A stretch of 55,210 nucleotides of DNA from a virus (Duplodnaviria > Caudoviricetes): positions 1 through 55,210 of the IMG/VR virus record IMGVR_UViG_3300049053_000107; one strand, 5' to 3'. The notes under the pieces are model-generated. The model had not been told where the DNA came from. It worked only from the letters and a program-made list of their open reading frames with translations, and did not search any database. The position numbers and the translations under genes are program-made. Every line of letters begins with the position of its first letter. Position 1 is the stretch's first letter. Of the stretch, positions 11,957 to 55,210 are shown one piece after another.

Positions 11957-14817
11957 TAGCTTAATATTACTTTTTCACCATTAATTAATACCAGGCAATC
12001 ATTTATTTTTAGCCACGGGCAACACTCGCCTATAGGTGTAACAGGATTATCAAATCTTTTCAACAGTTTCATTTCGCATCTTTCTTCTGAAAAATTATAT
12101 GTCAGCTTATAGGGCCATCCTGCTATATATTCACCTTCGGGATTTTTTACTGTTATATAGCCGTAATTTTTAGTTGGTGAGCTTGCACCTCGCATTGCTT
12201 CGTTTATCAACAACACCTGGTCAGGTGAAAGTCTGCATTTTAGATTCATCCATTCAGGCCGATATATGTACCCATCCGTATTCAAATCATCAATTGCTAC
12301 GTGCTGTTTTTCTTCCCATAAATCTTTATTTACATCACCCATTGGGTTTTCTTCTGTGGGTAAAAACTGCGTCGTCAAAGCACCATTTTTATCAACAAAA
12401 GTGTTTTTTACTTCATCGCTTTCGCTCTTAAACGCCCAGCTACCTACCAACCATTTAGCCCAATTAAGAAACATGCGAAGCGGTGATATGCGTAAGTTGT
12501 AAGCCGTCTCGGGCGAAATGAGATTGTCAACAGTCTGAAATGCTTCTGCTCTTTCCGCTCTGAAGTCACTACCATCTCTGCGCAGGGCAACAATAAACGG
12601 TTCTTCATCATTTTCGTAAGAATCCGTAGGTGTGTCAGCGTATTGTTGTCTGCGGCTATCTTCCAAAGAATAACCGCTTGCTATAAAATCACTTTTTGCA
12701 ATGAACTTGTTTTTATGAGACTTAATAGGCGCTAAACGTTCATGTTTCGTGTTGAATTCATCAAGCGTATTATGCCCATCTTCTTTATACTTGTTGTATC
12801 CAATTTCCAGCTCATTGTAAATAAGATCCTTTGCTACTTCCTCTTCATAAGTTTCAATACTTTCTTTGTTATTATAGTTTGGAGAGATTACCAGAATTTC
12901 ATTGTCCTGGTAAAAAAACCCTAGTTTTTCAACCCGTACTTCTTCCCTGAGACCTCTTTGTTCAAAACCAAACCCTATTGAAGCGATTGACTTTGTACTA
13001 TTCAATGCTGTTTTAAGGCTTATGTTTAAAGGTTTTTGATCAGCGTCAAAATTTCTTATGTTGAAACCGTTGGTAATTGCATAAAGCGAAAACTCACCGT
13101 CTTTTGCATTAAGGTTATTCAGTGTAGCCAGTAATTGAGAAGAAAGCCTACCCTGGTTATTTGTAGTGACTTTTAAAAGGTGATTGATCACATCGTGTAA
13201 AAGCCACATCTTAGAAGTGCTTTCAGGAGCCGATTCGAAAGATTCAGCTACGATAGACGTGTTTTCTGCACGTACTCTTGCTTTGTGTTTTCCTTCTATA
13301 GAAGCATCATAAAATGCATAAATGTAAACTTCATCGTCCTTTTTAAGATCCAGTGCAGGTATGCTGTCGTCGATCACTAAAACTTTTGATTGACTGTTAA
13401 TAGAAGCAGTTTGATCATTCCAGTGTCCATTTACCGTAGGGCCTATTTGCTGAGAGTAAAATTCTACCCCGGCTCGTATAACTTTAAAAAATGGTTTTAT
13501 AGTATAGTCGTCACTATCTGCTGTGGTAGTAGCTTTTCTTTGTAAGTCGATATATAGTGTACTTTTTATTTCAGAAAAAGTAACAACGCCGTCAAAATCC
13601 AGCTTCAGATTATACAGCGAATTGGCAACCGGGTTCAGATCAGATGCGTTCAATCCATATCCGAAATACGTACTTATCTCAGAAAGAACGGGATTGCTTG
13701 TGTCAGGTAAAAAATAAATATCGCCGTTATCTACGTAGGAAATCCAATCTGTTTGCGTACTGTTATCAATACTTAAACTTAAACGGCTTATAAACTTTTT
13801 GGAATGTAGTATAACATCGAAAGGCTGCGGTGAAATAATTGGCTCGCCATCCAAAGTTTCTGTAGCCTTCATTGACACCTTAGTTTCAAAACGACTTTGC
13901 AACAAATCGCTAAAATCTTTACGGTCTACGGATAAAGCCACACGCCCGAAAAGATTTTTACGGGTATTGAAATTCAGCTTTCCTTCAAACAATACAAATT
14001 CACTGCTGCCGTAAGTGAAACCGTATTTAAGTATTACTTCTGCGTCATTGCCGTAAAGTGAATACTGTTCTTCAATCAAGTCTTTTCCTGCATCGCAATC
14101 AAATTCTAATTGCACTTCGCCGTCTGAGTATTGGTGGTTCCAGCCATGCCAATCTTTATCCCGTTCACCGACTATACCAACAGCATCCCATTTTATTGGC
14201 TCTCTCACTAAATGCTCTGTATCTTCAATAACTAATTTGAAGAAATAGCAGATTCTTTCTTTCCAGGGAAAGCCTCCGGAACTGGTTGGTGCTATGGTTT
14301 CATTTGTTCTATTTACTGAAACGACTTCGCTATGCGTACAGCCAACATTGTCTTTTACATAGAGTATGTACACTCCTTTTACAAGTCCGACGAATTCATT
14401 TTGCAATTGCCAGGTTACGTTATCGAGAGAATATTTTATTGGACTGTTAGAAGATGAAGCGGTTACTTTAATGCTGCCATCGTAATTACCAATGTAGCTT
14501 TCATCTTCTACAGCAACTTCACTTACTGCAAGATCGCAACTAGGGGCCGGGATAAAACCGCATTCGGCAACATTATAATCTATGGTTACGTAAGTGAATG
14601 GTGTAATAAGGCTTGCGTATATAAAATGCTTATTACCCTCAAAACAAAGGCTTGTTATTTCTTCACCAGAAGGCATACCCAATTGCTCTTCTGTAACCTC
14701 GTCTAATTCGGGATCAGGTCCAGAAACATTCACATAGTTATCCCTTGTCTCTGGGTCATAGAAACAATTGTAGGCTGTGCTACCGATAACAAACGATCTT
14801 ATGAATACTTCAGCCAT
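11956..14817 (-). CDS. Large tail tip/baseplate protein with a SprB-like repeat
   Basis: Directly after tape measure; DGSIKVTASSSNSPIKYSLDN..WQ..NEFVGL..G.Y.LYVKD..GC. Confidence 0.6.
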   Translation of the reverse strand: MAEVFIRSFVIGSTAYNCFYDPETRDNYVNVSGPDPELDEVTEEQLGMPSGEEITSLCFEGNKHFIYASLITPFTYVTIDYNVAECGFIPAPSCDLAVSEVAVEDESYIGNYDGSIKVTASSSNSPIKYSLDNVTWQLQNEFVGLVKGVYILYVKDNVGCTHSEVVSVNRTNETIAPTSSGGFPWKERICYFFKLVIEDTEHLVREPIKWDAVGIVGERDKDWHGWNHQYSDGEVQLEFDCDAGKDLIEEQYSLYGNDAEVILKYGFTYGSSEFVLFEGKLNFNTRKNLFGRVALSVDRKDFSDLLQSRFETKVSMKATETLDGEPIISPQPFDVILHSKKFISRLSLSIDNSTQTDWISYVDNGDIYFLPDTSNPVLSEISTYFGYGLNASDLNPVANSLYNLKLDFDGVVTFSEIKSTLYIDLQRKATTTADSDDYTIKPFFKVIRAGVEFYSQQIGPTVNGHWNDQTASINSQSKVLVIDDSIPALDLKKDDEVYIYAFYDASIEGKHKARVRAENTSIVAESFESAPESTSKMWLLHDVINHLLKVTTNNQGRLSSQLLATLNNLNAKDGEFSLYAITNGFNIRNFDADQKPLNISLKTALNSTKSIASIGFGFEQRGLREEVRVEKLGFFYQDNEILVISPNYNNKESIETYEEEVAKDLIYNELEIGYNKYKEDGHNTLDEFNTKHERLAPIKSHKNKFIAKSDFIASGYSLEDSRRQQYADTPTDSYENDEEPFIVALRRDGSDFRAERAEAFQTVDNLISPETAYNLRISPLRMFLNWAKWLVGSWAFKSESDEVKNTFVDKNGALTTQFLPTEENPMGDVNKDLWEEKQHVAIDDLNTDGYIYRPEWMNLKCRLSPDQVLLINEAMRGASSPTKNYGYITVKNPEGEYIAGWPYKLTYNFSEERCEMKLLKRFDNPVTPIGECCPWLKINDCLVLINGEKVILS

Positions 14818-17800
14818 TAATTAAATGAGTGTCTTTTATTTAAATAGGTGTTTAGCCCATTTTTATTTTCTTGTGATCTGCGATAGCCTTTTTCATCCCA
14901 ACTATTCCGTTCTACTGTTATGTTGCCAACCGTATCTTTCATTATACCGCGCATTTCATCTTTAGAAATGCCCTTGCGGTCAAAAGCTCTTACCAAATTG
15001 TTCACTGCTTCTTTTTGTTTTCCATCACTGATTTGCCTGGTGAGCGCTGAAGTTGCTTTATCAGCAATGTTGTTCTCGGCCCTTAAAGCATGGTCAATGA
15101 TGCGCTTACTTTCTTCATGCGTCCAAACACGTTCACCACCTTTCATATCCATAATCTGAGGCTCACGGGCTACATACATTCTACCGTTACGCTCAATTAA
15201 CTCAAAACCTGCTTCACCTACTAAAGCTTTACCTACAGGTGCAGACTTAGTACCTTTTGCAAACTTTGGTAAAGGACGACTAGCTACTAAAGCTGCCTGG
15301 AATGCACCTTGTGCCAGTGCATAAGCAGACCATGGCAAACCAAATGTCAATGGACTGGCTGCAACTGCTTTTATCACACCAATTGCTGTATTAATAGCTA
15401 TCTCAAATAAGGCCATTGTCTTTTCACGTTTGGCCTGTTTTGTTTTTTCAGCATTGATGCGTTTTTGATATTCTTTTTCGATTTTCTCACGAGCTGCAGC
15501 GTTGCTGCCTGCTATTTCCAATTCTTTATTACGGGCATTTTCTAATTGGCGAATCCGGTTATCACTGGCTATTTGCTGATTGTCGGCGAGAGTAGAAAAT
15601 AATTGGTCGCTTGCCTGTTGTGCATAATCAGCGATAAGATCAATTGTTTCTCTGCGGTGACGTGCAGTAAGTAAAGCCTGTTCATGTTCTATTTCCTGAA
15701 TGGCTTCAGTATTGCCTACATACAGGCGTTTAATTTTTTCCAGGTATTCCATTTCCTCACGATAACTAACATCTCTGCGATTACGCTCAATTTCCATTTT
15801 ACGGGCTTCAGCGTCTACGGTTGCTTCTACCACTCTGTCAGCTGCACCGCCTGCGTCTACCACACCGCGATCAGATATTTTAGTACTACGAGAAGAGAGT
15901 TTATCTACCGGCCCTCTTTCCCTGTTTTTTTCAAGGAATTTGGATATTTCAACTTCAGCTTCAATAATTTCTTTTTTCAAATTGGTAATACGTTCCTGGT
16001 CTGCATGCTTGCCAAGCTCCAATTCTTTTTCAATAGATTTTTCTAAGTAGGTAACAGTCAGCCAATACTTCTGTTCCTGAAACTCTTTTTCAGTAATTAT
16101 TTTATCAACACTTTTATCTTCAGCTAGTTTTATATCAAGTTCTGCTTCCGCTTTTAATAAATCTTGTGCTTTGCGGTTTGCGGCTATGCGTTCACGAAGT
16201 TTTTCTTCAGCGCTGTCCTTACTGTCTTTTTTATTGGCTTCACCTAAAGCCTTCATTTCTGCATTATGCTTTTGTGCATTATGCGCTTCCTCGTTATCTA
16301 AGACAAGGTGACGGCCTAAGTATTGTTTATAGATCCGTAATGCTTCAGCGTAGTCTTTTTCATCCTGCACATTTTTTGCACCGGTACTATTATCTGCGAT
16401 ATTTCTAGCAACAGTAACTGCAGCCCGTTTATCTGTTAAAGTTTCCCTACGTTGAGAACTGGTTTGAGATTGGAAATTATTAAAATCCTGTTCCTTCAAT
16501 TGAGCCTGTACGTTAGCCCTAGTATTACTACCATTGAATATTCCGATAAAACTTTTCCATGAAGGTGAATTGGTAAATACATTTAAGCTATCAAAGAAAG
16601 AAGCCATACCTCTTTTTACCTCAGTCCAAAAACTTACCATACCGCTTTTCTGTCCAAAACTTTGAAGGAAACGATTAAATGAGTTGGTTAACCTGTTCGT
16701 CTCATTGGTTAATTGCTGCGCATTCTCAATGGCTGATTTGCTGTATGTCTTATTTAAGATATCTGCAACTTTTGGTAAAATGTCAGAAGCAAGTACTTCA
16801 CCACTACGAAGCATTTTATCGAGTTTAGCAGTACTAACACCAGCAGCTTGCGCAAATATGTTGAACGCACCAGGTAAATGCTCACCTAATTGCTGTCTCA
16901 GTTCTTCAGCGCTTACCTTGCCTTTGGAAAGCATTTGCTGAATAGCACGTAAAGAGCTTTCAACTTGCACATTACTTAACTTCAGTGCGGTGCCTGCCTG
17001 TACAACTGCTTCAAATATTTTACGGGTTTGTGCACCTTCCAATGAAGTGCCTTTAGATGCGGCCGTAAGTGATTTGTAGCTAATAGCCAAATTGTTCAAA
17101 TCCTGACCGTACTTGTTTGCAATGCCTCTTAGAAACTCAATAGTTTCAGCAAGCTCCTGTTCGGTATCTACAACAGCACGTAAACCGGCTTCCATGTTCT
17201 GAAACTCAATATTGGCATTAATCACTTTATTAAATCCTGCAAGCAGTGTAGTAACAATTGCCAAAGGCCCGGCAATACCAAGTATCTGTGCACCTAATCC
17301 CGAAAAAGCCGATCTGTAATTACCTACACTCCTACCATAAGCCCCCATTGACGAATCAGCACGTTTCAATGCTTTATCCAGCGTTTCAATTTTATGCTGT
17401 AAGGCAACAGCTTCTTTATTTTGACGATTAATTGCACCAGTTGTAGCATTGAAAGCACCGGGCATAGCTTGCAAACGATTCTTAAGCTGTGTAAGCTCTA
17501 AAGACATTTGCTTATAAGAACCGCTTGTAGCATCCAGGTTCTTTTTAGTAACCCTTACCACTTCAGAAAAGCGGTGAACGTTGGGGATTACTTCGGCAAG
17601 GCGCTTATTAATCCGGTCAAGTTCCTGCCTGTAATTTGCATTTGACTTATCCAGATTATCATACTCTTTTTTAAGATTTTTTAGTTCCTGCTCCAACGCT
17701 TTTTGAGAAGCAGTAGTAGCATCCGTCACAACCCGTAAACCTGTCTCTGTGTCTCTTAATTTATTTTTACGGTCAATAATTTCATCTACGGCTCTTTTCA

Positions 17801-18023
17801 TTGCCTGAAGGACCACCGTAGCATTTACGTTACCTACATTAAACTTATTGAGAATTTCAACCGTTTTAAGAAGATCACTGTTGTATTCTTGTTGCCTGCG
17901 AGAGAGTTCTTTAAGCACCCCGCCAACGGTGGCAGCAAACTCTTTGGTTTGCTTCCTTGCCTCTCCCATGTCTCTAAAGAAACTAGGAAAATCGAATAAC
18001 TCTGTATGCTGAACTGCTGACAA
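14817..18023 (-). CDS. Tape measure protein
   Basis: AIQQMLSKGKVSAEELRQQLGEHLPGA tape-measure domain; long helical protein; FAKG..VGEAG.E C-terminal motif; TTG start. Confidence 0.9.
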   Translation of the reverse strand: MSAVQHTELFDFPSFFRDMGEARKQTKEFAATVGGVLKELSRRQQEYNSDLLKTVEILNKFNVGNVNATVVLQAMKRAVDEIIDRKNKLRDTETGLRVVTDATTASQKALEQELKNLKKEYDNLDKSNANYRQELDRINKRLAEVIPNVHRFSEVVRVTKKNLDATSGSYKQMSLELTQLKNRLQAMPGAFNATTGAINRQNKEAVALQHKIETLDKALKRADSSMGAYGRSVGNYRSAFSGLGAQILGIAGPLAIVTTLLAGFNKVINANIEFQNMEAGLRAVVDTEQELAETIEFLRGIANKYGQDLNNLAISYKSLTAASKGTSLEGAQTRKIFEAVVQAGTALKLSNVQVESSLRAIQQMLSKGKVSAEELRQQLGEHLPGAFNIFAQAAGVSTAKLDKMLRSGEVLASDILPKVADILNKTYSKSAIENAQQLTNETNRLTNSFNRFLQSFGQKSGMVSFWTEVKRGMASFFDSLNVFTNSPSWKSFIGIFNGSNTRANVQAQLKEQDFNNFQSQTSSQRRETLTDKRAAVTVARNIADNSTGAKNVQDEKDYAEALRIYKQYLGRHLVLDNEEAHNAQKHNAEMKALGEANKKDSKDSAEEKLRERIAANRKAQDLLKAEAELDIKLAEDKSVDKIITEKEFQEQKYWLTVTYLEKSIEKELELGKHADQERITNLKKEIIEAEVEISKFLEKNRERGPVDKLSSRSTKISDRGVVDAGGAADRVVEATVDAEARKMEIERNRRDVSYREEMEYLEKIKRLYVGNTEAIQEIEHEQALLTARHRRETIDLIADYAQQASDQLFSTLADNQQIASDNRIRQLENARNKELEIAGSNAAAREKIEKEYQKRINAEKTKQAKREKTMALFEIAINTAIGVIKAVAASPLTFGLPWSAYALAQGAFQAALVASRPLPKFAKGTKSAPVGKALVGEAGFELIERNGRMYVAREPQIMDMKGGERVWTHEESKRIIDHALRAENNIADKATSALTRQISDGKQKEAVNNLVRAFDRKGISKDEMRGIMKDTVGNITVERNSWDEKGYRRSQENKNGLNTYLNKRHSFN

Positions 18024-43860: not shown

Positions 43861-45819
43861 TTAATCTTTTTTATAGTACATAGTCTCAAATCCATCAGCA
43901 GCCAAAGGCAAACCCTTAGCCCAGCTAATTGGCATACTCATAATTTGGTTTACTTCATCCAGACTACCAACGCCAAGCGGCATTTCCATAACTATTTCAT
44001 CGTGTATATGGGCAATGATCTTATAGCCTTTATCGTGCAGACGGAGCATAGCAGTTGCCAGAACATCACGGGCCACAGCCTGCACAATGTTTTCCACCAA
44101 TTTCCCACCGTATGTATTCTGCTTACCCCACTGCTTTGTTGTCTGGTTCATGCCTTCATAGATCAACGTATATCCGTTAAAGGCGTTTGGCCGGGTAGAA
44201 GGTTTTAAATAACAAAGTCGTCTGCCACTTGGCAATTGAATAAAGAAGATGCCTTTTTCTTTCAGCATCTTCACACCATGGTTTAAAACAATTGTTTGGC
44301 CTGTCTGTACACAGGTGTTTGCTGCTTCACCTACCTGGTACCAATAGCTGCAAATCTTCCGGTTAGCATTACGCCACATCTTAACCAGCTTCGGTAATTC
44401 CTCTTCCACAAGGCCCATGCGTAAAGCGCCCATTGCTATTAGCGCATTAGGTCCACCCTGGTAGCCCAATGCCAGTTCTGCGATCTTTGCCTTATGCCGC
44501 CATTCACTTGTTTTAGTAACTTTCTCAATGGGTATTTTAAACATGTGCGCTGCAGTAGCTTCATAAATTTTACCGTGAGTATTAAATACGTCCAGCTTCC
44601 AGCGTTCACCACTGAGCCATGCAATTATTCTTGCTTCAATAGCTGACAGGTCACTTATGATTAATCTATTTCCAGGCTCTGGAATAAAAGCAGTGCGTAT
44701 AAGCTGGCTTAAGGTATCAGGCACATTACCGTAAAGCATTTGTAGTAATTCCAGGTCATTACGCTTTACTACTTCCCTTGCCAGGTCCAAATCTTTCATT
44801 TCGTTACGTGGAAGGTTTTGCATTTGCACAATGCGACCAGCAAACCTTCCTGTTCTATTGGCACCGTAGTATTGAAACAATCCGCGAATACGGTTGTCGC
44901 TGCATTTGCTTTTAACCATGGCCGCATACTTCTTTACAGAAGTCTTTGACATTTCCTGCCGTATGTTTAGGACACGCTTAATAGTATCAGCACCTATATA
45001 GCCGTCTACCTTAGTAAGCAGTTCCGGTATATCTGTTTTTTTCAGAGTATCAATATCATCAAGCGGCATTTCCTTGGTTAACCATTCTTTCAATTGAGAC
45101 ACACTGTTAGGATTGCTAAGGCCAGTGAGCTTAATTGCTTCAGTGGTTAGTTTCTCTTTATAGATGCCTTCCATGCTGATTGCATTTTTTACCAATTCAG
45201 GATCTACCAACACGCCGGTATCGTTTATTTGCTGATCCAGGTGCCACAGTCTTTTTTCAACAGGAGGTATTTCGAAAAAGGAAATTTTGTTTTTAATTGC
45301 TTGTTCGGCTACTACGTCCTGCGCACAATAGTCTTTGAATTGCTGCCACTTTACCGGGTCATGTTGCGGCAGGTTACGTGTTCTGCCACCATTAGCTTTT
45401 GTAGGCTTGCAGGGCATCGAGAAATAACGGATAAGTGGTTTACCATTTCCTTTTTGTTCGGTTAAGTTTAGCACTCTGGCAACTGTTTCAAGATTGAGAG
45501 GCAAACCAAGCATTGAGGCATGTACGGCTGTACACTGCCATTGGTCAACGGGTAATTTTAATTTGAAATATTTATTAAGGGCCGTCCTTTCGAAGTTGGC
45601 ATTAAAAGCACATTTTATTATTGAGGGGTTAGTAAGTGCATTCTCAATTTCTAAAGGCAAGTGTTCGCCTTGTGCCATGTCTACTACTTCAACCGGACGG
45701 CCATCAAGAGAGTAGCCAAATAGCAATATTTCAAAATCAGGAGCTTCCACGTATTTGTATACACCCGTGTTTTTTATTTCGTTGCTGCTATAGGTTTCTA
45801 TGTCTATGGCTAATTGCAT
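43861..45819 (-). CDS. polA: Family A DNA polymerase with 3'-5' exonuclease domain
   Basis: IDIETYS, SDLSAIEAR, KIAELALGYQGG and HIHDE; ATG at 45819 overlaps the RT stop (TAATG). Confidence 0.93.
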   Translation of the reverse strand: MQLAIDIETYSSNEIKNTGVYKYVEAPDFEILLFGYSLDGRPVEVVDMAQGEHLPLEIENALTNPSIIKCAFNANFERTALNKYFKLKLPVDQWQCTAVHASMLGLPLNLETVARVLNLTEQKGNGKPLIRYFSMPCKPTKANGGRTRNLPQHDPVKWQQFKDYCAQDVVAEQAIKNKISFFEIPPVEKRLWHLDQQINDTGVLVDPELVKNAISMEGIYKEKLTTEAIKLTGLSNPNSVSQLKEWLTKEMPLDDIDTLKKTDIPELLTKVDGYIGADTIKRVLNIRQEMSKTSVKKYAAMVKSKCSDNRIRGLFQYYGANRTGRFAGRIVQMQNLPRNEMKDLDLAREVVKRNDLELLQMLYGNVPDTLSQLIRTAFIPEPGNRLIISDLSAIEARIIAWLSGERWKLDVFNTHGKIYEATAAHMFKIPIEKVTKTSEWRHKAKIAELALGYQGGPNALIAMGALRMGLVEEELPKLVKMWRNANRKICSYWYQVGEAANTCVQTGQTIVLNHGVKMLKEKGIFFIQLPSGRRLCYLKPSTRPNAFNGYTLIYEGMNQTTKQWGKQNTYGGKLVENIVQAVARDVLATAMLRLHDKGYKIIAHIHDEIVMEMPLGVGSLDEVNQIMSMPISWAKGLPLAADGFETMYYKKD

Positions 45820-46769
45820 TAGGCTAATAACTTTTTTAAAAGGTTTTTGCTGTTGCAGTGTTTCGCCCAACCCCAATAAGATGCAATGGAAGAAAGGTTT
45901 TTCCTTTTGGCTACCATACGGGCAAAATTTTGTTTGATACTTTTTCTTAAAAGAATGTGAGTGTGATAAAAACGGTAACCTACAAAATCCAGACTACGTG
46001 CGTCAACAGGAAATACCTGGTAATTACCTTTTACCGATAGGTTTAATTTCTCGACTAAATAGCTTTTGAGCTCTTTAAATAATTCGTGTAAATACTGCTT
46101 ATCATCTGAAAGGATAACCAGATCATCTGCATAGCGGAAATAGTACTTTACGCCTTTGGTTTCTTTCAGCCAGTGGTCAAAATAGGTGAGATAGAAATTT
46201 GCTAAATACTGAGATAGATAATTACCTATTGGTAACCCTGGTGCGCTGTCAATGATTTCGTCTAACAACCAAAGCAGGTCCTGATCTTTTATTTTCCTTC
46301 GTAATAACTGTTTTAAGATGGCATGATCTACCGATGGATAAAACTTCTTAATATCCAATTTCAAACAATACTTAGTACTTGCTTCATCACGAAGTGCTTT
46401 TTTTACTTTATTCGCAGCGTTATGAATACCTCTTCCTTTAATGCAACTGAAAGTATTAGCAATAAAACACGAAACAAACAACGGTTCTAAAACATTCATT
46501 ATAGCATGATGCGTAATCCTGTCAGGGTAATAAGGTAATTTATAAACATCTCTTTCTTTTGGTTCAAATACTTTGAAAATTTTATACGGAGAGGTTTTAT
46601 AAGTTTTATTTATTAGGGATTGATGAAGCTTAGTAATGTTGTTCTCCCGGTCAATGTCGTGAGCTTTAACACTGTACTGATTTTGTTTGCCTTTACGGGC
46701 AATAGTGTCGGCAAGCATAAGATTTTCTACGCTGCAAATTTGTTCATATAAATTACCTAATCGTTTCAT
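45819..46769 (-). CDS. DGR reverse transcriptase
   Basis: GLPIGNYLSQ and YFRYADD; 316 aa with no maturase/HNH domain; adjacent TR and VRs. Confidence 0.95.
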   Translation of the reverse strand: MKRLGNLYEQICSVENLMLADTIARKGKQNQYSVKAHDIDRENNITKLHQSLINKTYKTSPYKIFKVFEPKERDVYKLPYYPDRITHHAIMNVLEPLFVSCFIANTFSCIKGRGIHNAANKVKKALRDEASTKYCLKLDIKKFYPSVDHAILKQLLRRKIKDQDLLWLLDEIIDSAPGLPIGNYLSQYLANFYLTYFDHWLKETKGVKYYFRYADDLVILSDDKQYLHELFKELKSYLVEKLNLSVKGNYQVFPVDARSLDFVGYRFYHTHILLRKSIKQNFARMVAKRKNLSSIASYWGWAKHCNSKNLLKKLLA

Positions 46770-46864: not shown

Positions 46865-46931
46865 AGCAATTGCGGGAGCTAACATTCGAATTCGTGTAGT
46901 TGTCATTGACGTTGTTCAGCGAAAAGCCAGA
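46865..46931 (-). repeat. DGR template repeat (TR)
   Basis: Intergenic; reads SGFSLNNVNDNYTNSNVSSRNC; 18 adenines, all at codon positions 1 or 2. Confidence 0.93.
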
Positions 46932-46980
46932 AGCAAAACAGCACAAAGCCAAAATGCAACACTCCAAGTAGTACACAACC

Positions 46981-47352
46981 CTATTTATCAAACACCATGT
47001 AGTCTTTATACAGATCAATAAACTGTTTTACTGTGTACTCCGCTAAGTCTCTACTTTTGAAGCAAAGGCGGGAGCCAACACCCGAAGCCGCGTAGTAGTC
47101 ATAGACGCCGTCCAGCGAAAAGCCAGAGGGGTTACTTTTTGTTTTCTCCATATCAAACCAGGGATAGTACTTGTATTCATCATTGTTGTTCCAATCGGGT
47201 TTCCAACCATCGTTTATAACCTGAATAATTATAAACAGTTTTGCAAGTGCGATTAACGCTTTATTATGTGGATTATCAGGCAATGCAGGCACAGCTTTTT
47301 TAGGATCAATACCTAGCTTCTTACAAGCAGCTTCAAAAGTTTTTACTTTCAT
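46981..47352 (-). CDS. DGR target protein 1 (123 aa)
   Basis: Contains VR1 (SGFSLDGVYDYYAASGVGSRLC). Confidence 0.9.
   Translation of the reverse strand: MKVKTFEAACKKLGIDPKKAVPALPDNPHNKALIALAKLFIIIQVINDGWKPDWNNNDEYKYYPWFDMEKTKSNPSGFSLDGVYDYYAASGVGSRLCFKSRDLAEYTVKQFIDLYKDYMVFDK
47061..47127 (-). repeat. DGR variable repeat VR1
   Basis: 13 mismatches to TR in 67 bp, all at TR adenines. Confidence 0.93.
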
Positions 47353-47361
47353 TTTTAATAT

Positions 47362-47817
47362 TTATAAAGTGAAAAATTGTTTGTATAATTCAATAAATTG
47401 TTTAGCGGCATATTCTGCTAATTCCCTTGATTTGAAGCAAAGGCGGGAGCCAACACTCGAACCCGTGCAGGCGCCAGTGACGCTGAGCAGCGAAAAGCCA
47501 TTAGATTTATCCATGTAAAACCATGGGTAATACTTATATTCATTGCCATTATTCCAATTTGGTTTCCAACCTTCGTTTAAAGCAAGTATGATAATTTTCA
47601 GTTTTTTATAGGCTTCATCGTCGGGATCGTCCGTATTCGAAGCATGGAAACGCACACCTAACACTTCGCAAGCATCTTCAAATGTTTTTACACGATCAGT
47701 AATTTTTTGAGAAAAAAATTCTTTACCAAACGTATCTACTAACATTGTTTTAAATTCTGCTGAAGCTGAAGGGTAAAGTTTTCTAGCGTTTTCTTTATTT
47801 ATTTGTAAGGTTTGCAT
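47362..47817 (-). CDS. DGR target protein 2 (151 aa), paralog of target 1
   Basis: Shares VKTFE.AC, N.GWKP.W, EYKYYPWF and GSRLCFKSR.LAEY with target 1; contains VR2. Confidence 0.9.
   Translation of the reverse strand: MQTLQINKENARKLYPSASAEFKTMLVDTFGKEFFSQKITDRVKTFEDACEVLGVRFHASNTDDPDDEAYKKLKIIILALNEGWKPNWNNGNEYKYYPWFYMDKSNGFSLLSVTGACTGSSVGSRLCFKSRELAEYAAKQFIELYKQFFTL
47436..47500 (-). repeat. DGR variable repeat VR2
   Basis: 14 mismatches to TR in 65 bp, all at TR adenines. Confidence 0.93.
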
Positions 47818-47838: not shown

Positions 47839-47867
47839 AAAAAGGACCTGCCTGGAAAAGCAGGTCC
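47839..47867 (-). terminator. Rho-independent terminator after ssb
   Basis: GGACCTGC-N8-GCAGGTCC followed by TTTTT on the minus strand. Confidence 0.75.
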
Positions 47868-52777: not shown

Positions 52778-53197
52778 TTGGCTGAAGAAACTTTACTTAA
52801 TACGATTGGAGCAAGACTAAAGAAAGTACAGGCGGACTTAAACCTGAAGGTTGAGGATATGGCTATTAAAATAGGCATGGATAGAGGCCAGCTCGGAAAG
52901 GTTTTAAATGATAAGTTGGGTGTTACCACAAAGCAGGTCTTAGAAATTAGTTCCCAATTCGGTGTAAGAACGGGGTGGATTTTAGAAGGAGAGTTACCTG
53001 TATATGTGCAAAAAAAATCCGGCAACCAGGAGTTACCGGATCATTACTTACCAACCCTAAGTAAACACGTTAGTCAAGCTTTTTCTAATTTACAGGAAGC
53101 CATGAAAATGCTTCCGCAACCAATGGGGCCAGAAATAACCGCCGTTGGGGATGCGGCTTTTCGGAAGGGCAAAAAGAATAAGCAAGAAAAGCAATAG
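52778..53197 (+). CDS. CI-like repressor (XRE HTH, no obvious S24 peptidase domain)
   Basis: IGARLKKV...MAIKIGMDRGQLGKV...WILEGE; TTG start. Confidence 0.75.
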   Translation: MAEETLLNTIGARLKKVQADLNLKVEDMAIKIGMDRGQLGKVLNDKLGVTTKQVLEISSQFGVRTGWILEGELPVYVQKKSGNQELPDHYLPTLSKHVSQAFSNLQEAMKMLPQPMGPEITAVGDAAFRKGKKNKQEKQ

Positions 53198-54017: not shown

Positions 54018-54115
54018 GACGTAATCCTTACAACTCAAATGATCGGTGGATAGGCACTTTAGTTTTCGGAGTGATCGCTTGTATTGTTGCAGTTATAGCA
54101 AAGGCTTGTTCATAA
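54014..54115 (+). CDS. 33-aa single-TM peptide (not in ORF track)
   Basis: ATGA overlap with the upstream gene; MRRNPYNSNDRWIGTLVFGVIACIVAVIAKACS. Confidence 0.4.
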   Translation: MRRNPYNSNDRWIGTLVFGVIACIVAVIAKACS

Positions 54116-55210
54116 ATCTTTCCAGGCTTTATCAGTTTCCAATCGTATTTTCTCAGGAGTGATATAGCTGTAGTTTTTTTCAAACACAGCAAGCGTTATA
54201 CCCATAAGCTTAGCAGCCGTTTCAGAACTTACACCGCGTTCTAAACACATGGTTACTGCGAATGTCTTACGTCCGCAATGGGTAGTTAGTTTTTTATCAA
54301 TCTTCAAATACCCAGCGATCTTTTTAAGGTGTGCATTTATAGTAGGTTCGGACAAATATAATTTTGTTTCTTTCATCATTTTCAGCACTTCCAAAAGTCG
54401 AATATGCAGAGGGACATTTACCCAGACTTTGTTTTTTGCAGCTCTGAGCGATATGTTCCGTTCTTTTATTTTAGCCTCAACAAATTCTTTCCAATCACTT
54501 AACCTGAGCCCGGTATAACAAGCGAATAAAAAATACAGTGCGGATTGCTTCAGTGTAGCATGATCTGTTTCTACAGTATACTCATGCCATTTAATAACTT
54601 CTTTAAAAGTCAGATATGCTTTATTGCCTCCTGTAGTTTTAGGCATTTCGAATTGAGAGAAAGGATACACTTCAATTATCCCTTTTTTCCTGGCTGCATT
54701 AAACAGGGTACGGATCGTTCTAAATATAAGATTGCGATAATTTCCTTTATTGTCTGTGCCTTGCCTGGTTTTTACATTTTTAGGGTCCTGCATCCACTCA
54801 TCAAAATTGGTTAAGAAATCAACAGTTATTTCTTCAAAGGAAAGCAATTCACCTGCGTACTCTTTTAATTTACGTAAGTGTTTATCGTAGTTAGTAAGTG
54901 TAGATCTTGATTTATTATTTTTCACCTGGCGTTTGAACTGTTCAGCAAATTGGTAAATGTCATGTAGTTTACCGGCATGTAGATCCTTCACTCCTTTCGC
55001 TGATAAACCTTTACCTTTTACACTGGCGTTTATCAACTCCTGCAGTACTTCTTTTTTCTTATTGGTAATGTCCAGGTTAATTTGAGCATGCAGTTTATGC
55101 GCTTCTTTCACTAACTCTAAATTTGCATCCCACATTTTTGGTGGTATGGAATAACCAGTAGATGTGAATGAAGTTTTACGATTGACAGTAACACGTAAAT
55201 AAATAGGCAT
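54110..55210 (-). CDS. int: Tyrosine recombinase/integrase; 5' end may extend beyond the window
   Basis: PIYLRVT arm-binding start, SAM-like domain, YTGLRLSD, HCGRKTF and C-terminal Tyr. Confidence 0.92.
   Translation of the reverse strand: MPIYLRVTVNRKTSFTSTGYSIPPKMWDANLELVKEAHKLHAQINLDITNKKKEVLQELINASVKGKGLSAKGVKDLHAGKLHDIYQFAEQFKRQVKNNKSRSTLTNYDKHLRKLKEYAGELLSFEEITVDFLTNFDEWMQDPKNVKTRQGTDNKGNYRNLIFRTIRTLFNAARKKGIIEVYPFSQFEMPKTTGGNKAYLTFKEVIKWHEYTVETDHATLKQSALYFLFACYTGLRLSDWKEFVEAKIKERNISLRAAKNKVWVNVPLHIRLLEVLKMMKETKLYLSEPTINAHLKKIAGYLKIDKKLTTHCGRKTFAVTMCLERGVSSETAAKLMGITLAVFEKNYSYITPEKIRLETDKAWKDL

Follow-up and report, generated by a model that had tools for sequence, protein, structure and literature searches.

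The window analysed here is a 55,210-nt stretch of DNA that comprises the whole IMG/VR virus record IMGVR_UViG_3300049053_000107 (Duplodnaviria; Caudoviricetes). It contains a diversity-generating retroelement (DGR), in which a reverse transcriptase (RT) gene is located next to a template repeat (TR) and two target genes that each carry a variable repeat (VR). The cassette is encoded on the minus strand in the order hairpin, target 1 (151 aa), target 2 (123 aa), approximately 50 nt, TR, approximately 95 nt, RT. Its features are, with positions in the window:

47844-47867, minus strand: terminator-like hairpin with a T-run, between the gene for the single-stranded DNA-binding protein (SSB) and target 1; 10-bp stem with 6 G-C pairs, found in a consensus scan
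47362-47817, minus strand: target 1, long form, 151 aa; N-terminal helical extension and core domain with VR2; phrog_11581 (3e-33)
47436-47500, minus strand: VR2, in target 1; the variable codons are residues 111, 112, 114-119, 121, 123 and 126
47431-47451, minus strand: candidate IMH sequence (for initiation of mutagenic homing), located at the VR2 3′ end; 21 nt, the same as in VR1 and unlike the TR; putative role
46981-47352, minus strand: target 2, short form, 123 aa; core domain only, with VR1; phrog_11581 (1.9e-28)
47061-47127, minus strand: VR1, in target 2; the variable codons are residues 81, 82, 84-89, 91, 93 and 96
47056-47076, minus strand: candidate IMH sequence at the VR1 3′ end; 21-mer, putative role
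46865-46931, minus strand: TR, non-coding, between target 2 and the RT gene; 18 adenines
45819-46769, minus strand: DGR-type RT, 316 aa; Pfam RVT_1 (3.3e-19) and phrog_1423 'Reverse transcriptase' (3.6e-124)

It is practically certain that this locus has a genuine DGR anatomy and that its targets are members of the protein family phrog_11581. An earlier interpretation made from the letters alone (the sequence-only reading) had proposed that the element hypermutates two tandem, very small, non-structural proteins instead of a tail fibre.

Template and variable repeats differ only at template adenines

The TR and VR1 align without gaps over 67 nt and differ at 13 positions, 13 of which are TR adenines. 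Over the 65 nt of VR2 (47436-47500) there are 14 mismatches to the TR, again all 14 at adenines. If VR2 is aligned over 67 nt, two further non-A mismatches appear, both in the two bases 5′ of VR2. The sequence-only reading had reported these same counts, and they were reproduced on the minus strand. The hypergeometric chance that all mismatches fall on A is 3.4e-10 for VR1 and 5.0e-11 for VR2, and a degenerate TR pattern has only three copies in the window, TR, VR1 and VR2, with none expected in shuffles. A chance origin of the repeats is thus excluded. After these copies, the next best site in a sliding scan of the window matches 26 of 49 non-A positions; a search for further VRs, which the sequence-only reading had proposed as a check, therefore returned none beyond VR1 and VR2 in this record.

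The two VRs are also unlike each other, as had been stated, and differ solely at TR-adenine positions. All 18 TR adenines are located at codon position 1 or 2 of the target frame. Enumeration of the codons showed that substitution of A yields no stop codon and allows 4 or 15 residues per codon, which bears out the proposal that mutagenesis cannot interrupt the targets. Each VR stops approximately 25 codons ahead of the stop codon of its target.

The last two A differences change the TR codon AAT to CTT (Leu) and are the same in VR1 and VR2. This Leu codon is included in an exact 21-mer that occurs twice in the window, at the 3′ ends of VR1 and VR2 (0 expected by chance). Since it lies inside a stretch common to both VRs, the CTT codon may reflect the border between IMH and IMH*, or strong selection for Leu, instead of free mutagenesis. 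The shared 21-nt end is a candidate IMH-like sequence by its likeness to the IMH/IMH* of phage BPP-1 (PMC5758913). If the AAT/CTT codon is left out, the repertoire amounts to approximately 2.9e9 sequences per protein.

The reverse transcriptase and its surroundings

The window RT lies far below the cut-offs of all NCBIfam group II, retron and Drt models. It is 61% identical to the RT of the crAss-like phage cr52_1 and 48% identical to the RT of phage Versailles; altogether, identities of 48-73% were found to RTs located beside TR/VR sets (70 other loci, described below, together with Versailles and cr52_1). The cr52_1 RT gene (L101; NC_055888.1 26623-27591) contains six in-frame TAG codons, which fits TAG recoding in that phage. 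The window RT contains the sequence LPIGNYLSQ, whose IGNYLSQ motif is regarded as diagnostic of DGR RTs; no statement to this effect was found in PMC5758913.

No match to PF05635 (Avd) at E ≤ 1 is present in the window, and the distance between target 2 and the RT gene is only about 210 nt, too short for an avd gene. The DGR is thus presumably independent of Avd. In a survey of 372 DGRs, avd was present in 275 and absent from 97 (26%), with none elsewhere in the genome, and Avd-independent homing was proposed (Wu et al., 2018; PMC5758913); the window fits this group. The RNA of the spacer between TR and RT is as structured as its shuffles (z = 0.60). A sigma-70 promoter scan, which does not cover Bacteroidota promoters, found 6 sites versus 8.8 expected. 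The hairpin between the SSB gene and target 1 suggests that the cassette is a separate transcription unit.

Both targets belong to a large family of phage proteins

The two target ORFs (open reading frames) are intact and their products are 57% identical in an alignment, which confirms the proposed pair of 123- and 151-aa paralogues. Neither protein has an N-terminal hydrophobic segment, in agreement with the reported lack of a signal peptide. No family name was obtained for them from Pfam (above the cut-off), NCBIfam or PADLOC, and no structural PHROG or Pfam family was matched; PHROGs v4 lists phrog_11581 as being of unknown function. A Pfam match of the 151-aa protein to DUF3798 was below threshold (16.1 bits versus a cut-off of 24.6) and was rejected.

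Searches with the 151-aa protein confirmed 3459 of 3489 candidates as relatives at E ≤ 1e-3 (90% clusters). For the 123-aa protein 2844 representatives were found at E ≤ 1e-3, and 1144 at E ≤ 1e-10 (50% clusters). When 37 long and 39 short forms are aligned, the strongly conserved blocks KTFEDAC, ALNEGWxPDW, KYYPWF and VGSRLCFKS..LAEYAxKQF become apparent, as does a single hypervariable block that is located precisely at the VR. Each VR is followed by the conserved sequence ...CFKSxELAEYAxKQFxDLYK; the tail of about 25 aa that the sequence-only reading had noticed in the two targets is therefore visible in the family alignments as well.

Some family members are two-domain fusions of 247-353 aa (P0121-P0125, P0004, P0129); P0122, for example, consists of a long form and a short form. 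In the Rosetta-stone sense, such natural fusions hint at joint action of the tandem paralogues. Two other members carry the source names 'pantothenate kinase' (P0002) and 'FMN phosphatase YigB (HAD superfamily)' (P0014). Neither sequence nor searches support these names, which are likely mis-annotations.

A conserved and active class of cassettes

With the family alignment as query, IMG/VR yielded 530 pattern matches; 488 of these were verified as relatives, and 80 loci were kept for comparison. Two tandem targets, long then short, are present in 63 of these loci, three targets in 7 and a single target in 10. In 70 loci an RT homologue (56-73% identity, full-length matches) is encoded directly downstream of the targets, and in all 70 the TR is located between the last target and the RT gene. 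A tally of 143 TR-VR pairs gave 2131 mismatches at A versus 643 at other bases, the latter number being inflated by untrimmed local alignments that overrun the VR ends.

To see whether the VRs vary, ten related cassettes were compared at first; this set was too divergent, with variation throughout, and was narrowed to six cassettes that are approximately 99% identical. Among 1938 columns 40 are variable, and 29 of the 40 are TR-adenine positions (15 in VR1, 14 in VR2). Of the remaining variable columns one is a non-A position of a VR and 10 are located elsewhere, five of them in one indel. Between two of the window's closest relatives, L010 and L012, all 12 variable columns fall into VR1 (nine substitutions at TR-adenine positions and a 3-nt indel). 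The insertion in L012 relative to L010 is an in-frame change of length, which is unexpected from simple A-mutagenesis. That nearly identical cassettes vary almost exclusively at the TR-adenine positions within the two VRs indicates that this class of cassettes is active, and the variation among related phages that an inactive element would lack was thus found.

The closest relatives of the window (L010-L013; RT 68-72% and PolA 58-65% identical) carry the cassette upstream of the genes for the DUF2800 nuclease, SSB and PolA. In the window it is located between SSB and PolA. The cassette thus moves as a unit. The complete record of L010 (G001; 55,425 nt, 100% complete), which is the window's closest complete relative, contains the TR and three VRs, all of them in members of phrog_11581. 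Its third VR belongs to a third family member just after PolA (L091:27-614, minus strand), about 6.4 kb from the TR, and has no mismatch to the non-A positions of the TR pattern. At the corresponding place the window encodes a Dam-like methyltransferase. The record of L019 (G003; a provirus of 59,436 nt, 100% complete) contains the TR and two VRs, as does G002, which is 75% complete. In the two 100% complete relatives, G001 and G003, no VR was found in a structural gene. Because every VR in these two genomes is located in the target family, the claim that small proteins rather than a tail fibre are diversified is correct for the class; for the window, which is 76% complete, it covers the part present in the record.

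Logan contigs from the probable source run, which is not an independent sample, include one contig of 15,442 nt (depth 42) that carries the cassette with 0 differences, whereby contigs drop rare variants. Three other soil or rhizosphere runs gave short, diverged pieces only.

In 62 of the 70 RT-bearing cassettes an additional ORF of approximately 100 aa is present, which adjoins the RT gene in 60 and begins at or overlaps its 3′ end. It belongs to phrog_19665 (function listed as unknown; no Pfam, NCBIfam or PADLOC match) and is absent from L010-L013 and from the window (tblastn E > 0.4). An example is:

L025:8000-8296, plus strand: phrog_19665 ORF; like ORFs are found in L015, L021, L029, L033, L034, L036, L038, L045, L051, L052, L056, L075 and L084

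The ORF is a candidate for a new DGR accessory protein of this Avd-less class. Judged by its size, and for CH1 also by the published isoelectric point of that class, it does not resemble the Avd, HRDC, MSL and CH1 classes described in PMC5758913.

The cassette is located among replication genes

The window is a provirus (CheckV: 76% complete), and at its far end the record breaks off within an ORF of 699 aa in the tail region. The gene order begins with a cut integrase, a helix-turn-helix (HTH) regulator, a methyltransferase, a DUF2800 PD-(D/E)XK nuclease and an Enc34-type SSB, which is followed by the cassette. Genes for PolA, a primase-helicase, an SNF2 helicase, the large terminase, the portal, capsid-region proteins, the tape measure and distal tail proteins come after it. 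The targets thus lie between SSB and PolA and approximately 29 kb from the tape-measure gene (14817-18023), which agrees with the earlier placement among replication genes and far from the tail genes.

In order to see whether this location recurs, 20 flanking proteins from five further loci (L025, L045, L017, L015, L019) were inspected. The targets of L025 are preceded by an SbcC-like ATPase, RecT and a metallo-beta-lactamase hydrolase and followed by a DEAD/ResIII helicase. An AAA_22 ATPase is encoded next to L045, a primase upstream and a DNA methyltransferase downstream of L017, a primase downstream of L015, and a phosphoadenosine phosphosulfate (PAPS) reductase next to L019. None of the 20 flanking proteins belongs to a head, tail or packaging family, and those not named here are of unknown function. 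The non-structural neighbourhood of the family therefore recurs in several unrelated phage lineages.

The family is the distal target of published phage DGRs

A tblastn search of 50,697 phage records found a relative of the targets in 14 of them, with approximately 30-44% identity. These are LoVEphage-type Bacteroides/Phocaeicola phages, phage Versailles and crAss-like phages. The LoVEphage homologue QVQ57199.1 can be aligned with the window family along its entire length (hhalign probability 99.3%, E = 2.4e-20). It is encoded near genes for a methyltransferase, a PAPS reductase and an RtcB ligase, and its VR shows A-only differences to the TR beside the RT gene, about 14 kb away. A second VR, RT-proximal and located in a larger protein, is served by this TR as well. 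The likeness of the two LoVEphage targets is confined to the VR (62% identity over a stretch of 50 residues). In the LoVEphage paper this RT-proximal ORF, located upstream of the RT, is described as coding for a tail collar fibre protein. The LoVEphage RT gene itself (MW660583.1 47930-48984; L007/L008/L009) is in three pieces in different frames, one of which has an internal TAG. The Quimbyvirus RT has likewise been described as split over frames, with two programmed frameshifts proposed (Benler et al., 2021; PMC8008677). According to PMC8008677 and the LoVEphage paper, Quimbyvirus and LoVEphage are each approximately 95% identical to the same prophage of B. dorei CP011531.1.

The Versailles homologue is encoded after SbcC, RecT, a metallo-beta-lactamase hydrolase and NinB. 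All 14 mismatches of its VR are at adenines of a TR located approximately 44 kb away. In the crAss-like phage cr52_1 the homologue is gp91, with 12 of 12 mismatches at adenines of a TR about 56 kb away. Thus, in all three deposited phages examined (LoVEphage, Versailles and cr52_1) the remote DGR target is a member of this family, and in phages with two targets the phrog_11581 member is the one far from the RT gene and the tail module.

Distal targets of this type have been noticed before. Up to the work on Quimbyvirus the known phage DGR targets were structural, according to the abstract of PMC8008677, and its text reports a non-structural, distal target near counter-defence genes and C-type lectin domains for both Quimbyvirus targets (Benler et al., 2021). 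A 2025 Nature paper (PMC12629997) describes four species of gut prophage that have a second VR which is distal and close to counter-defence genes. Both papers already take the distal target as non-structural and linked to counter-defence. The novelty that the sequence-only reading had implied by setting the element against BPP-1 was therefore overstated, since a non-structural distal target that is a full-length homologue of the window proteins is in print. Roux et al. (2021) class viral targets as 'structural' or 'unknown' only, and such proteins are not discussed in sections 8 and 9 of that paper. No published description of the family, of tandem dedicated cassettes, of the fold or of a heterodimer was found in the texts; the figures and supplements of PMC8144416, PMC8008677 and PMC12629997 may list the family.

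Predicted structures and a predicted heterodimer

AlphaFold2 models based on the family alignments are confident, with a mean local confidence (pLDDT) of 87.5 and a predicted template modelling score (pTM) of 0.77 for the 151-aa protein and values of 94.6 and 0.87 for the 123-aa protein. The modelled core, a small alpha/beta domain, comprises one long helix, a loop rich in Trp, a beta-hairpin, a further loop and two helices at the C-terminus; in the long form it is preceded by an N-terminal extension of approximately 40 helical residues. Foldseek found no match to the PDB at E ≤ 1e-3 for either model, and the best E-value of a profile search against PDB sequences was 0.31. The ESM Atlas gave only clusters of 'hypothetical protein', mostly viral, and the 10 BFVD matches at E ≤ 1e-3 are all uncharacterised phage proteins. 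The sequence-only reading had asked for a minimal C-type-lectin-like fold with exposed VR residues. Such a fold was not detected in these searches, and the variable codons correspond to the second beta-strand of the model and the loop after it. The models are compatible with a much reduced relative of the C-type lectins, and the VR end resembles that of the RT-proximal target of LoVEphage.

Prediction of a complex of the 151-aa and 123-aa proteins gave a score of 0.84 in three runs, versus 0.01 for the best of three controls, with a pLDDT of 89 for the partner and at least 97% of the contacts common to the runs. The mark for such scores, which the pair passes, is reached by 58 of 80 solved complexes and by 2 of 110 mismatched pairs, and is a rough guide here because our own alignments were used. 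The predicted interface includes the first strand and, in each VR loop, the end that is invariant, as well as about half of the variable positions. The long and the short paralogue are therefore predicted to form a heterodimer, which agrees with the conserved long-then-short gene order and with the natural fusions.

A proposed mechanism and its alternatives

By analogy with BPP-1, the RT would copy the TR RNA and insert random bases opposite adenines. The cDNA would then replace the VR of either target, probably guided by the shared 21-nt IMH-like end. Such retrohoming would recode 10-11 codons without creating stops, giving approximately 2.9e9 variants per protein. The family phrog_11581 is large and phage-specific and is a recurrent DGR target in phages of Bacteroidota, invariably encoded among genes of the early, replication, recombination or DNA-modification type; in this class of cassettes it is the only target. 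Within the infected cell, the pair of targets would most likely serve as a variable binder in phage-host conflict, in counter-defence or host takeover, and would track a fast-changing molecule of the host or of a rival. The sequence-only reading had likewise suggested intracellular anti-defence or host-takeover factors; this suggestion is based on gene position and the lack of export signals. We assign a probability of about 0.5 to the statement as a whole, that is, an Avd-less DGR with two paralogous targets that would serve as an intracellular binder in phage-host conflict. A more specific form of it is tentative and, in our judgement, rather doubtful: in Bacteroidota phages the sole job of the DGR would be to diversify a cytoplasmic heterodimer on a scaffold without a recognisable C-type lectin or immunoglobulin (Ig) fold, and the two loops would form a composite surface that neutralises varying host-defence or rival-phage proteins in the manner of an intracellular antibody. 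If this were true, it would amount to adaptive counter-defence by targeted hypermutation and to a third structural scaffold for DGR variable proteins.

Several findings weigh against this explanation. The functional part of it rests on gene neighbourhood, and because the phage genes are all on one strand, the term 'early operon' is a positional one. The Versailles homologue is annotated as 'tail protein' in the deposited record. In LoVEphage, Versailles and cr52_1 one TR is used for an RT-proximal VR as well, so that the loop repertoire of the family is shared there with a protein presumed to be part of the virion. The presence of about half of the variable positions in the predicted interface fits a free binding surface less well. 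Ten of the 80 loci have no RT; three of them end within 700 nt downstream, and seven have at least 6 kb of downstream sequence. With no Avd or other accessory gene in the window, the activity of this copy is deduced from its own VR differences and from its relatives, and the missing 24% of the window's genome might hold a further VR.

Three other explanations were considered. The cassette might be moron-like and expressed from the prophage, with the variable heterodimer recognising rival phages or mobile elements on behalf of the lysogen, in superinfection exclusion or as a defence sensor. That the window provirus encodes an integrase and an HTH repressor, that a terminator-like hairpin stands between the SSB gene upstream and the cassette and that the place of the cassette varies between the window and L010-L013, as is the case for morons, would all fit. 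DGRs that diversify putative sensors of bacterial conflict systems are described in the abstract of PMC10907252, and a prophage DGR expressed during lysogeny is reported in a preprint (bioRxiv 10.64898/2026.05.08.723808). However, no conserved effector domain or partner gene is encoded beside the targets, and neither target has a PADLOC match. In addition, the family is present in crAss-like phages, which are not known to be classical temperate phages. We regard this lysogen-protective role as unlikely. An extracellular role appears more unlikely still: the targets could be virion-associated accessory or adaptor subunits, or soluble adhesins or decoys that are freed at lysis, and would bind surface structures that vary, so that ordinary receptor-binding diversification would take place away from the tail module. 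The 'tail protein' annotation in Versailles and the TR and VR-stretch identity shared by the early and the RT-proximal protein of LoVEphage speak for it, virion proteins need no signal peptide, and DGR targets that are extracellular and not tail fibres have been published (tentaclins, PMC10743442; a secreted Hoc-like protein, bioRxiv 10.64898/2026.05.08.723808). It is opposed by the replication, recombination and DNA-modification neighbourhood in the window and five further lineages, in which 0 of 20 neighbours are structural, and by the position of the family far from the RT gene and the tail module in two-target phages. The resemblance to the RT-proximal target of LoVEphage does not extend beyond the VR, PHROGs v4 gives no function, and the BFVD structural neighbours are all uncharacterised.

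That the element is a dead relic or a chance similarity, with nothing now being diversified, is very improbable. The single Logan contig without alternative VR contigs would be expected of a relic, although this is a weak point since contigs drop rare variants, and the window has no accessory gene. Against this stand the statistics of the repeats (3.4e-10 and 5.0e-11, 0 matches in shuffles), the intact ORFs and the restriction of VR1/VR2 differences to TR-adenine positions. Moreover, L010 and L012 are also without the accessory ORF after the RT, yet they differ, and do so only in VR1.

Comparison with known systems

The BPP-1 cassette (mtd-avd-TR-brt) shares with the window the A-specific TR/VR differences, the adenines at codon positions 1-2, a VR near the 3′ end of the target, the RT beside the TR and an IMH-like conserved VR end (PMC5758913). 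The window differs by the lack of Avd, by having a tandem of two targets (123 and 151 aa) where BPP-1 has a single tail-fibre protein, by the location of the targets among replication genes and by the approximately 25 coding residues after the VR; a C-type lectin fold went undetected in the fold searches. Tentaclins and the Hoc-like protein are also part of two-target phage DGRs in which one target is not a classical tail fibre (PMC10743442; bioRxiv 10.64898/2026.05.08.723808). As described there, they are large proteins with C-lectin and Ig domains that are thought to be extracellular, whereas the window targets have approximately 120-150 aa, lack such domains and are encoded in the replication region.

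Closest to the window is the distal target of Quimbyvirus and LoVEphage, which has the same protein family, the A-only VR and the same type of neighbourhood (methyltransferases, PAPS reductase, tRNA ligase). There it is a single remote extra target, in LoVEphage approximately 14 kb from the RT gene, and the TR is common to the RT-proximal target. Its VR has approximately 108-117 nt in a protein of approximately 190 aa, compared with VRs of 65-67 nt in the window class. In the latter the family is the only target and is encoded as a tandem of long and short form directly upstream of TR and RT.

Several points are new here. The published distal targets and the window cassette fall into one definable family, to which scattered remarks on distal second VRs near counter-defence genes can now be tied, and whose range extends from Chitinophagaceae-type prophages of the soil to Bacteroides phages of the gut and to Crassvirales. 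In addition, a class of DGRs is dedicated to this family in tandem long/short pairs, with models that have no solved-fold match and a predicted heterodimer. Phage DGRs are generally seen as tools for host range that act via tail proteins. The present class shows a conserved, abundant and apparently active other use, the hypermutation of small proteins that are encoded with replication genes and are the sole targets in some complete genomes. Confident models, the predicted long/short heterodimer and cultured Bacteroides phages with a homologue, such as Versailles and the LoVEphage-like isolates BI-TP1 and PV4-TP1, offer testable handles. If the targets bind components of host defence, they would represent a phage-side counterpart of adaptive immunity and would provide tools for protein evolution by DGRs with a scaffold that is new and compact.

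Further features of the window

Two genes mark the lysogeny end of the provirus:

54110-55210, minus strand: tyrosine integrase of the Bacteroidota type (Arm-DNA-bind_5, Phage_int_SAM_5), cut by the window end
52778-53197, plus strand: Cro/C1-type HTH regulator

On the other side of the cassette, the PolA ORF as listed begins with a TTG at 45876 and has 58 nt in common with the end of the RT gene (45819-45876). Since the conserved exonuclease motif begins after an internal Met (MQLAIDIETYS), the true start of PolA is probably located further downstream.

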